This document shows, one piece after another, positions 5,371-7,075 of a DNA stretch of 45,478 nt (position 1 is the first letter of the stretch; every line of letters begins with the position of its first letter). The translations under genes were made by a program, and so were the position numbers. The stretch lies in IMG/VR virus record IMGVR_UViG_2541047780_000004; one strand, given 5' to 3'. The notes beneath the pieces were generated by a model. That model was not told the origin of the DNA and did no database searches. It saw nothing but the letters and a program-made list of their open reading frames with translations. Source of the stretch: a virus (lineage: Duplodnaviria; Heunggongvirae; Uroviricota; Caudoviricetes).

Positions 5371-5531
5371 ACCGCCTCCCGTTTATTATTTATCTTCTCA
5401 GCCAGCCGCTGTGCTTTCAGTGGATTTCTGATAACAGAAAGGCCGGGAAATACCCAGCCTCGCTTTGTAACGGAGTAGACGAAAGTGATCGCGCCTACCC
5501 GGATATTATCGTGAGGATGCGTCATCGCCAT
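5343..5531 (-). CDS. Small early protein (hypothetical)
   Basis: 62-aa ORF, ATG at 5529-5531, overlaps the downstream gene by 28 nt. Confidence 0.45.
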
Positions 5532-5661
5532 TGCTCCCCAAATACAAAACTAATTTCAGCCAGTGCCTCGTCCATTTTTTCGATGAACTCCGGCACCATC
5601 TCGTCAAAACTCGCCATGTACTTTTCATCCCGCTCAACCACGACATAATGCAGTCCTTCAC
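5522..5661 (-). pseudogene. 5'-truncated early-gene remnant abutting the IS911 left end
   Basis: The ORF track's 5522..5710 reading frame runs into the IS911 terminus at 5662, so its first 16 codons are IS-encoded; only the C-terminal 46 codons are phage-derived. Confidence 0.35.
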
Positions 5662-5733
5662 TGAAGTGGTTTACTGAATTTGGCCACCTGAACAGAGGTG
5701 ATATGCTCACCTCAGAACAACACAGGTGCCATA

Positions 5734-6036
5734 ATGAAAAAAAGAAATTTCAGCGCAGAGTTTAAACGCGAATCCGCTCAACTGGTCGTTGACCAGAATT
5801 ACACCGTGGCAGATGCAGCCAGCGCTATGGATGTCGGCCTTTCCACAATGACGCGATGGGTGAAACAATTACGTGATGAGCGGCAGGGAAAAACACCAAA
5901 AGCCTCCCCTATTACCCCGGAACAAATTGAAATCCGTGAGCTCAGGAAAAAGCTACAACGTATTGAAATGGAAAATGAAATATTAAAAAAGGCTACCGCG
6001 CTCTTGATGTCAGACTCCCTGAACAGTTCTCGATAA
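5734..6036 (+). CDS. insN: IS911 OrfA (HTH transposase subunit)
   Basis: ATG at 5734 ([18 protein letters not shown]...); leucine-zipper-like C-terminus. Confidence 0.85.
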
Positions 6037-6062
6037 TCGGGAAACTCAGGGCGCGTTATCCT

Positions 6063-6881
6063 GTGGCCACTCTCTGCCATGTGTTCGGGGTCCATCGCAG
6101 CAGCTACAAATACTGGAAAAACCGTCCTGAAAAGCCAGACGGCAGACGGGCTGTATTACGCAGCCAGGTACTTGAACTGCATGGCATCAGCCACGGCTCT
6201 GCCGGAGCAAGAAGCATCGCCACAATGGCAACCCAGAGAGGCTACCAGATGGGGCGCTGGCTTGCTGGCAGACTCATGAAAGAGCTGGGGCTGGTCAGCT
6301 GTCAGCAGCCGACTTACCGGTATAAACGTGGTGGTCATGAACATGTTGCTATCCCTAACTACCTTGAACGGCAGTTCGCCGTGACCGAGCCAAATCAGGT
6401 GTGGTGCGGTGATGTGACCTATATCTGGACGGGTAAGCGCTGGGCGTACCTCGCCGTTGTTCTCGACCTGTTCGCAAGAAAACCAGTGGGCTGGGCCATG
6501 TCGTTCTCGCCGGACAGCAGGCTTACCATGAAAGCACTGGAAATGGCATGGGAAACCCGTGGTAAGCCCGTCGGGGTGATGTTCCACAGCGATCAAGGCA
6601 GTCATTATACGAGCAGGCAGTTCCGGCAGTTACTGTGGAGATACCGGATCAGGCAGAGTATGAGTCGGCGTGGAAACTGCTGGGATAACAGCCCAATGGA
6701 GCGCTTCTTCAGGAGTCTGAAGAACGAATGGGTGCCGGCGACGGGCTATGTAAGCTTCAGCGATGCAGCTCACGCAATAACGGACTATATCGTTGGATAT
6801 TACAGCGCACTAAGACCGCACGAATATAATGGTGGGTTACCACCAAACGAATCGGAAAATCGATACTGGAAAAAACTCTAA
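6063..6881 (+). CDS. insO: IS911 OrfB (DDE catalytic domain; expressed as OrfAB by -1 frameshift)
   Basis: 272-aa ORF with integrase-core-like sequence; stop directly followed by the right IR. Confidence 0.85.
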
Positions 6882-6911
6882 CTCGGTGGCCAGTTTTTGT
6901 TGACCACTTCA

Positions 6912-7075
6912 GGTATACAATCCTCATCCAAGGGGATGATATGGGCTTGTAGCCACATATCAGAGCGACTTGGTTTCTGTTTCCATTTAACGCCAGAAAA
7001 GTTAACTATTTTTTTACAATAAAGTACTTTATCAACTTCTACTTGGCTTGGCTGATAATCATCTATTTTTGCCAA
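6912..7075 (-). pseudogene. 3'-truncated ORF at the rex position (immediately downstream of the repressor gene), cut by IS911
   Basis: Reading frame starts on TTG at 7073-7075 and runs into the IS911 right end at 6911; AT-rich; only 54 phage-derived codons remain. Confidence 0.25.

Follow-up and report, generated by a model that had tools for sequence, protein, structure and literature searches.

A lambda-like prophage without its N gene and most of a cI-adjacent cassette, probably through deletion anchored on a resident ISEc52

The DNA analyzed here, a stretch of 45,478 nucleotides that we call the window, carries a lambda-like prophage integrated at icd in which 5464 bp next to the cI-type repressor gene are absent and an ISEc52 insertion sequence (IS) stands in their place. 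It is highly probable that this arrangement is a deletion associated with the IS and goes back to a single ancestral insertion at positions 6911/6912, whichever of the two routes discussed below was followed, and we lean toward the view that the 5464 bp were lost by a deletion anchored on the resident ISEc52 copy, most likely a transposase-driven adjacent deletion. The first-pass annotation of the window had suspected at this place a deletion associated with the IS and not a simple insertion, and this suspicion is borne out by comparison with a prophage that is otherwise identical and from which nothing is missing at the position of the IS.

The reference for this comparison is the intact prophage at icd in E. 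coli ABU 83972 (locus L001). Window positions 3536-5661 correspond to L001 1-2126 and window positions 6912-9822 to L001 7591-10501, in both cases at 100% identity, while L001 2127-7590 is the segment absent from the window; to the right of the IS, a window coordinate equals the L001 coordinate minus 679. Both flanks are found in thousands of E. coli genomes and lie 5464 bp apart in many of them (e.g., ABU 83972, clone D i14, and UPEC 26-1), and the genomes with both flanks that were inspected have either this spacing or 7423 bp, the latter with an added IS100. Comparison with a related prophage lacking the IS had been proposed as a check at the outset, and it allows the content between cI and the early-left genes to be listed gene by gene.

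L001 1987-2667, minus strand: exo, partly deleted, with the 5' 541 nt lost
Within L001 2127-7590: bet, gam, kil, and cIII, wholly deleted
Within L001 2127-7590: a DUF2528 (ea10-like) gene, ral, and sieB, wholly deleted
L001 5739-6011: N, a 90-aa open reading frame (PF25694, PHROG 271), deleted
L001 5989-6171: a 60-aa open reading frame, deleted
L001 6448-7200: a DUF1828 gene, deleted
L001 7197-7754: a gene for a 185-aa protein, partly deleted, with the 3' 394 nt (two-thirds) lost

What remains at the two edges of the deletion, together with the IS between them, is as follows.

5522..5661, minus strand: 3' remnant of exo, last 45 codons and stop, 100% identical to WP_000186790.1
5662..6911, plus strand: ISEc52, an IS911-like element of the IS3 family, 1250 bp (inverted repeats, PGAP label, NF033516)
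5734-6036, plus strand: orfA, part of the transposase genes at 5734..6881
Up to 6881, plus strand: orfB, in the -1 frame relative to orfA and overlapping it
6912..7075, minus strand: 5' stub of the 185-aa gene, 54 codons and 2 nt, with a TTG start at 7075

The early-left gene that had been recognized as truncated is thereby identified as exo. Its product, WP_000186790.1 (“lambda exonuclease family protein”), is encoded by L001 1987-2667 in ABU 83972, of which the window keeps L001 1987-2126, so that about 180 N-terminal codons, the 5' four-fifths of the gene, are gone; the “46-aa remnant” first described here was right to within one split codon. On the other side, the reading frame downstream of cI had been reported as cut after 54 codons, which agrees with its 100% identity to L001 7591-7754, the start of the gene for WP_001062368.1. 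The frame of this stub runs 11 codons into the right inverted repeat (IRR) to give a 65-aa fusion frame at 6878-7075, which is present in 4 further public assemblies. Three draft carriers, GCA_003886565.1, GCA_001620985.1, and GCA_022131505.1, have contigs that end within the IS. The corresponding fusion frame at the junction of exo and the left inverted repeat (IRL) has no match on record, and there is no conflicting record either. The earlier remark that the two flanking frames cannot be joined by simple excision holds as arithmetic (164 + 140 nt) but has no bearing on the question, as the frames belong to two separate genes 5.4 kb apart.

The coordinates and terminal repeats of the IS were described correctly in the first-pass annotation. 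The copy is exactly 1250 bp long with 5'-TG...CA-3' ends, the IRL starting at 5662 with TGAAGTGG and the IRR stopping at 6911 with CCACTTCA, and its terminal inverted repeats are imperfect (28-nt arms, 79% complementary). A slippery site, A-AAA-AAG at 5985-5991, leads to a 382-aa OrfAB fusion free of stops, which scores 380.6 bits with the NCBIfam model NF033516 (“IS3 family transposase”; cut-off 160). With its intact OrfAB and slippery site, the copy appears to be active. The element shares with IS911 of Shigella and E. coli its length, its TG...CA ends, imperfect inverted repeats of about 36 bp, the orfA/orfB organization with an A-AAA-AAG -1 frameshift and a 382-aa OrfAB, and a 3-bp duplication upon simple insertion (seen for an identical ISEc52 copy, described below).

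The name IS911 given to it at first therefore holds for structure and not for identity. By ISfinder convention, elements carry the same IS name at roughly 95% nucleotide identity or more. Across all 1250 bp, the window IS is 94.0% identical to a copy labelled “IS911 family” by PGAP, a comparison with a PGAP-labelled copy rather than with the ISfinder reference, and the IRL differs between the two (TGAAGTGGTTTACTG in the window vs. TGAAGTGGCACACTG in the “IS911 family” copy), whereas copies 98–100% identical to the window IS, identical ones among them, carry the PGAP label “IS3-like element ISEc52 family.” Judged from these sequences, the element is IS911-like in all structural respects and better named ISEc52.

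The statement that the 3 bp on either side of the IS differ stands up to realignment. On its left, the IS is bordered by CAC (5659-5661), and on its right by GGT (6912-6914); at 4 bp they read TCAC and GGTA, and moving the ends outward by one base, which an extension of the repeat by C...G permits, gives TCA and GTA. There is consequently no direct repeat at the ISEc52 ends in any register (3 bp, 4 bp, or a one-base shift), and a target duplication hidden by the choice of alignment is excluded. THO-006 has, in the same prophage, a further ISEc52 copy of identical sequence; this one is a simple insertion flanked by a perfect duplication of 3 bp (CAT), at a site that corresponds to window 3802-3804, and it was acquired independently of the insertion next to cI. 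Since this copy did produce a duplication, the missing target-site duplication (TSD) in the window must be a property of the locus, that is, of the deletion, and not of the element.

The right junction, in which the IRR is joined to the 185-aa gene, occurs in 2 of 5426 complete E. coli genomes (FDAARGOS_1255 and FDAARGOS_1293), and both carry deletions. Together with the window, these make three alleles.

Window: left junction at L001 2126 in exo, right junction at L001 7591, 5464 bp lost
FDAARGOS_1293: left junction at L001 2554 in exo, right junction at L001 7591, 5036 bp lost
FDAARGOS_1255: left junction at L001 5456 in sieB, right junction at L001 7591, 2134 bp lost

In all three the IS has the same orientation and the right junction is the same to the base, with only the left junction varying, and there are zero differences among the ISEc52 copies of these three prophages and THO-006. 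The three prophages are also identical over 13.7 kb rightwards from the IS and over the whole left arm; all mismatches among them are confined to the head-gene region (window 19.4-24.8 kb), a distribution that patches of recombination would produce. The identity of the IS-proximal DNA indicates one insertion inherited by descent, which on these sequences is much more probable than three separate insertions at the same place.

An IS situated exactly at the deletion junction, no TSD, and one constant junction at an IS end combined with one variable junction at the other are the marks by which IS-anchored adjacent, nested deletion is classically recognized. We infer an ancestral simple insertion and a pathway of two steps. 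In the first, a single ISEc52 would have inserted into the 185-aa gene downstream of cI with its IRR at 6911/6912; this ancestral insertion should have had a GGT duplication, and its left junction would read ...CCCTTGTATAGGT joined to TGAAGTGGTTTACTG. In the second, one or more deletions would have extended leftwards from the IRL end of the resident copy, most likely with OrfAB acting within the molecule on a target close by; the IS and the IRR junction would be kept and the duplication's left copy lost. An identical product would result if a new copy in direct orientation landed nearby and both copies then recombined. The IS copies carry no differences able to reveal a hybrid, and the two routes give the same end product.

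The canonical copy-out-paste-in mode by which IS911 transposes leaves the donor copy untouched, so adjacent deletion would be a side pathway for such an element. Fusion of orfA and orfB has been found to raise the rates of adjacent deletion in IS3-family elements (PMC11708052), and in the long-term evolution experiment (LTEE) with E. coli, events at IS150, another member of the IS3 family, were assigned to adjacent deletion that grows from a copy already in place (Ngan et al., 2024, PMC11708052). The resemblance to the IS150 events is close in that an IS3-family element is kept at the junction without a TSD, one end of the IS is constant, and deletions of varying length depart from the other, those in the LTEE growing over time. 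Unlike the LTEE events, the alleles described here are a natural series from clinical isolates that is not time-resolved, the element is ISEc52, and the initial insertion was unobserved.

A possible though less probable course of events is that a second ISEc52 copy inserted into exo in the same orientation (with separate insertions in sieB or exo in the other two alleles) and that RecA-dependent recombination followed. The second copy would have arrived with its own 3-bp duplication, and exchange between the direct repeats would remove the intervening DNA and one IS, yielding the product observed: one IS, a left flank at the second target, the ancestral right flank, and no duplication. The supply of copies is adequate for such a course, as ISEc52 is multicopy in the matched complete genomes (6–14 matching places per record), has hit this prophage repeatedly, as the independent simple insertion in THO-006 attests, and by the copy-out-paste-in mode of IS911-like elements naturally gives new copies while the donor stays. 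Recombination between IS copies is also one of two common causes of missing TSDs (PMC11708052), although the analogous LTEE events were classed in the same study as adjacent deletions from the resident copy. It further requires a second insertion within 2–5.5 kb and in the right orientation, either three times or serially, and no two-copy intermediate is present among the 5426 complete genomes.

We consider it very improbable that the IS played no causal part, with ISEc52 inserting independently into prior deletions or double-strand breaks, or at a preferred target at 6911/6912. The three alleles agree to the base in their right junction and also in orientation, IS sequence, and the 13.7 kb next to the IS, no deletion allele free of the IS occurs among the inspected genomes with both flanks, and strict site specificity is not known of IS911-like elements. 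In favor of an independent origin, the ancestral simple insertion was not found at the right junction in the 5426 complete E. coli genomes, searches for the right junction in IMG/VR viral contigs and for the predicted ancestral left junction in JGI metagenome contigs gave no matches, and IS insertion into DNA breaks has been proposed for some events without a TSD (PMC11708052).

The left junction of the window is absent from complete E. coli genomes; a single apparent 100% match in one of them consists of two pieces that lie 428 bp apart and had been joined. The only known occurrence of the window allele is in a draft, the independent public assembly GCA_000458095.1, which is 100% identical over window 1-17075 with the same arrangement. 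That two contigs were misjoined in a draft across an IS repeat that had collapsed, with the 5.4-kb segment really present, is scarcely credible even though IS repeats are classic misjoin sites and this exact junction occurs in no complete genome, given that the window sequence is continuous without N characters, that two complete FDAARGOS genomes show the same type of structure with the same right junction, and that the left junction-specific reading frame is merely absent from other records, none of which conflicts with it.

The deletion took in the N gene of the early-left region. In the intact relative, the 90-aa reading frame scores 112.5 bits with the Pfam family PF25694 (N_peptide; cut-off 27.9), also matches PHROG 271 (“anti-termination protein N-like”), and has the arginine-rich N-terminus GTAASRRRARRANLQ. 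Upstream of it, on the minus strand at L001 6110-6123, is a boxB-like hairpin, TGGCTGAAAAGCCA, which we take to be nutL, and further upstream lies an AT-rich region with an operator-like motif, AAAGTACATAT, in common with oR. A strong terminator that ends the cI operon is located just past the DUF1828 gene (L001 6444-6423). A simple scan of the deleted DNA gave no consensus pL; from position and the one operator-like motif shared with oR, pL/oL can be placed at about L001 6190-6420. By their positions within L001 2127-7590, N and the terminator of the immunity operon fall inside the deletion, as do the putative pL/oL and nutL.

The same undeleted arrangement is found in the phages ev017, ev207, PhiR57_1, and PhiR63_2, in which the region from N through the cassette to cI is 100% identical and N is annotated as such. 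As these are isolated phages, the arrangement belongs to working temperate phages. Likeness to these phages and to the icd prophages of ABU 83972 and CFT073-type strains is 100% in the immunity region (cI, cro, N, cassette), and the prophage backbone is collinear with theirs and at least 99.7% identical. Unlike these uninterrupted relatives, the window is without the 5464 bp, has ISEc52 there, and contains two IS66-family elements in its tape-measure gene. The part of the immunity region that it retains comprises the following features.

7115..7810, minus strand: cI-type repressor with HTH and S24 LexA-like peptidase, intact, WP_001302016.1
7811-7885: oR/pRM/pR region, between cI and the cro-like gene
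7886..8101, plus strand: cro-like HTH regulator, intact, WP_000067727.1
8112..8157, plus strand: putative orphan nutR, with boxA-like CGCTCTTTG at 8112-8120 and boxB hairpin TCGCTGAAAAGCGA at 8144-8157

The repressor WP_001302016.1 (“LexA family protein”) corresponds to L001 7794-8489 of ABU 83972, and the operator-like motif lies at 7840-7850; the relative also has it, inverted, in the pL region that is deleted here. The nut sites of both the window and the relative are presumably such by resemblance to lambda boxA and boxB; a 14-mer search was not above chance, so the match is one of resemblance only. The first-pass annotation had recognized no N-like antiterminator or pL-proximal gene, and this is now explained by the location of N, nutL, and the pL region inside the deleted 5464 bp. 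Nor is an N gene present elsewhere in the 45.5-kb window: tblastn with the N of the relative gave a best E-value of 1.8, and a lambda N sequence likewise returned nothing below E 1.8. Consensus scans for outward promoters at the IS ends and for pRM read-through across the IS into xis/int stayed at chance level.

In lambda, expression of the early-left operon needs transcription from pL and antitermination by N at nutL, and int and xis are expressed from pL. From this biology we infer the phenotype of the prophage. Immunity should persist since cI, oR, and cro are intact, while transcription and N-dependent antitermination of the early-left operon and pL-driven expression of int/xis should be lost. 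Excision and lytic growth should be lost as well, because pL/oL, nutL, and N have been deleted, and exo-bet-gam, kil, cIII, ral, and sieB with them.

The tape-measure gene is in addition split by a 5468-bp insertion (window 29844-35311) that consists of two IS66-family elements, is flanked by an intact 8-bp duplication, TAAGAAAG, and is found in neither FDAARGOS_1255 nor FDAARGOS_1293. We considered whether this insertion could be the deleted segment in a new place and rejected the idea, as nothing in it resembles the deleted DNA; given its IS66-family content and its own duplication, the match in size (5468 vs. 5464 bp) is a coincidence. The early-left deletion and the disruption of the tape-measure gene together would make this a doubly disabled, grounded, and cryptic prophage. 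The window stops after the tail-fiber genes, where sitABCD follow in relatives, and the prophage of the relatives contains iss and an ompC-like porin gene.

The genes lost from beside cI, the 185-aa gene and the DUF1828 gene for a 250-aa protein, form a two-gene cassette directly downstream of the repressor gene; relatives have the full pair, whereas only 54 codons of the 185-aa gene survive in the window. The 250-aa protein is assigned to DUF1828 at 33.5 bits (cut-off 22), and the sole Pfam match of the 185-aa protein, to DUF6978, is sub-threshold (22 bits vs. 29.6); both proteins fall into PHROGs of unknown function. The 185-aa protein has invariant H-x-H...E residues and a confident predicted model (pLDDT 82, pTM 0.81), for which no meaningful solved or viral structural relative was found. 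Its homologues form 21 clusters, from Enterobacterales only. In all eight contexts examined, the 185-aa gene overlaps a DUF1828 gene of roughly 250 codons by 4 bp, and the pair lies directly downstream of S24 repressors, which come in seven different lengths, and before pL-N; the hosts are lambdoid prophages of Escherichia, Klebsiella, Salmonella, Yersinia, and Xenorhabdus.

This arrangement resembles that of lambda rexAB, exclusion genes expressed in the lysogen, in which a gene pair after cI on the same strand is likewise followed by a terminator and then by pL-N. Unlike rexAB, the pair has no similarity to RexA or RexB (no Rex family in Pfam, PHROG, or NCBIfam), and the equivalence is positional only. 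To judge from its genomic contexts, the cassette behaves as a mobile accessory module that is expressed in the lysogen and placed where rexAB would be. Compared with PADLOC models, the pair shows weak-to-moderate resemblance to the candidate PDC-M24B over its full length (E 4.7e-10) and to PDC-M24A over 60 residues only (E 4.8e-4). We suggest tentatively that in intact relatives the cassette may be an uncharacterized, lysogen-expressed anti-phage or exclusion system in the rexAB slot, a reading for which its position and the resemblance to PDC-M24, itself only a PADLOC candidate defense system, are the sole grounds. The searchable literature contains neither a defense phenotype nor a discussion of the cassette proteins.

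The case described here is one of ordinary decay of a prophage, brought about by an IS in a manner already well known. For annotation, it means that the prophage should be recorded as defective (without N, pL, nutL, and red/gam/kil/cIII, and with a broken tape-measure gene), the IS as ISEc52, and the small reading frames on either side as fragments of exo and of the cI-adjacent cassette gene. A side product is a pointer to a two-gene cassette at the place of rexAB that is unstudied and widely shuffled. The series of three alleles provides a clean natural case in which deletions at an IS3-family element grow from an anchor that stays in place, a process so far documented mostly in laboratory evolution, and it illustrates the grounding of a prophage whose relatives carry cargo beneficial to the host, with iss inside and sitABCD just past the tail genes.

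The prophage has been struck by ISEc52, an IS911-like element of the IS3 family, more than once. Two further IS insertions are found in the same prophage in other strains, with positions given on the locus of each strain:

L021 (THO-006 locus) 2371-3620, equivalent to window 3802-3804: second, independent ISEc52 copy
L002 (Combat2C1 locus) 4236-6563: IS100 (IS21 family, istA/istB), in the DUF2528 (ea10-like) gene

The THO-006 copy is identical to that in the window and is flanked by a perfect 3-bp duplication (CAT), with the ea22-like gene on one side of its target and the upstream pseudogene on the other. 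The IS100 of Combat2C1 represents a further independent IS hit on the early-left region, and the flank-to-flank spacing of 7423 bp in this strain arises because IS100 was inserted in the DUF2528 gene.

The window itself also carries an insertion in a tail gene:

Window 29844-35311: two-unit IS66-family insertion of 5468 bp, interrupting the tail tape-measure gene

Both IS66-family units have tnpA/tnpB/tnpC-like ORFs on the minus strand (one tnpC is broken into two). The insertion is bounded by an intact 8-bp duplication (TAAGAAAG at 29836-29843 and 35304-35311) and is missing in ABU 83972, FDAARGOS_1255 and FDAARGOS_1293. This 5468-bp insertion shows no similarity to the deleted segment of 5464 bp.

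The prophage is integrated beside icd (isocitrate dehydrogenase; window 1-1143), a 3' fragment of which is duplicated at the far prophage end in relatives (locus L005, 17189-18439), and the cargo in relatives includes iss, an ompC-like porin and sitABCD. When the window is compared with three related prophages, every mismatch (162, 50 and 6 respectively) lies within 19400-24900, the terminase/portal/head region, and this clustering suggests patches of mosaic recombination in prophages that are otherwise identical.

Two features concern the nut sites and the start of N:

Window 8112-8157: orphan nutR-like site 3' of cro, with boxA CGCTCTTTG and boxB TCGCTGAAAAGCGA
L001 (ABU 83972 locus) 5989-6171, minus strand: 60-aa ORF annotated "hypothetical protein" (PHROG 3137)

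In ABU 83972, which is intact here, the corresponding nutL sequence (TGGCTGAAAAGCCA) differs from the nutR-like boxB by a compensatory stem change (C-G to G-C). The 60-aa ORF overlaps the nutL boxB hairpin as well as the N start, and it may not be a real gene but part of a leader.

The predicted fold of the 185-aa protein, encoded by the first gene of the cassette next to cI, is without a known relative. Alignment of 18 homologues (59-99% identity) reveals invariant positions within residues 97-129, namely D97, D102, H104, H123, H125, Y127, Y128 and E129 (motif HYHVYYEE); these residues may form a metal-binding or catalytic site.
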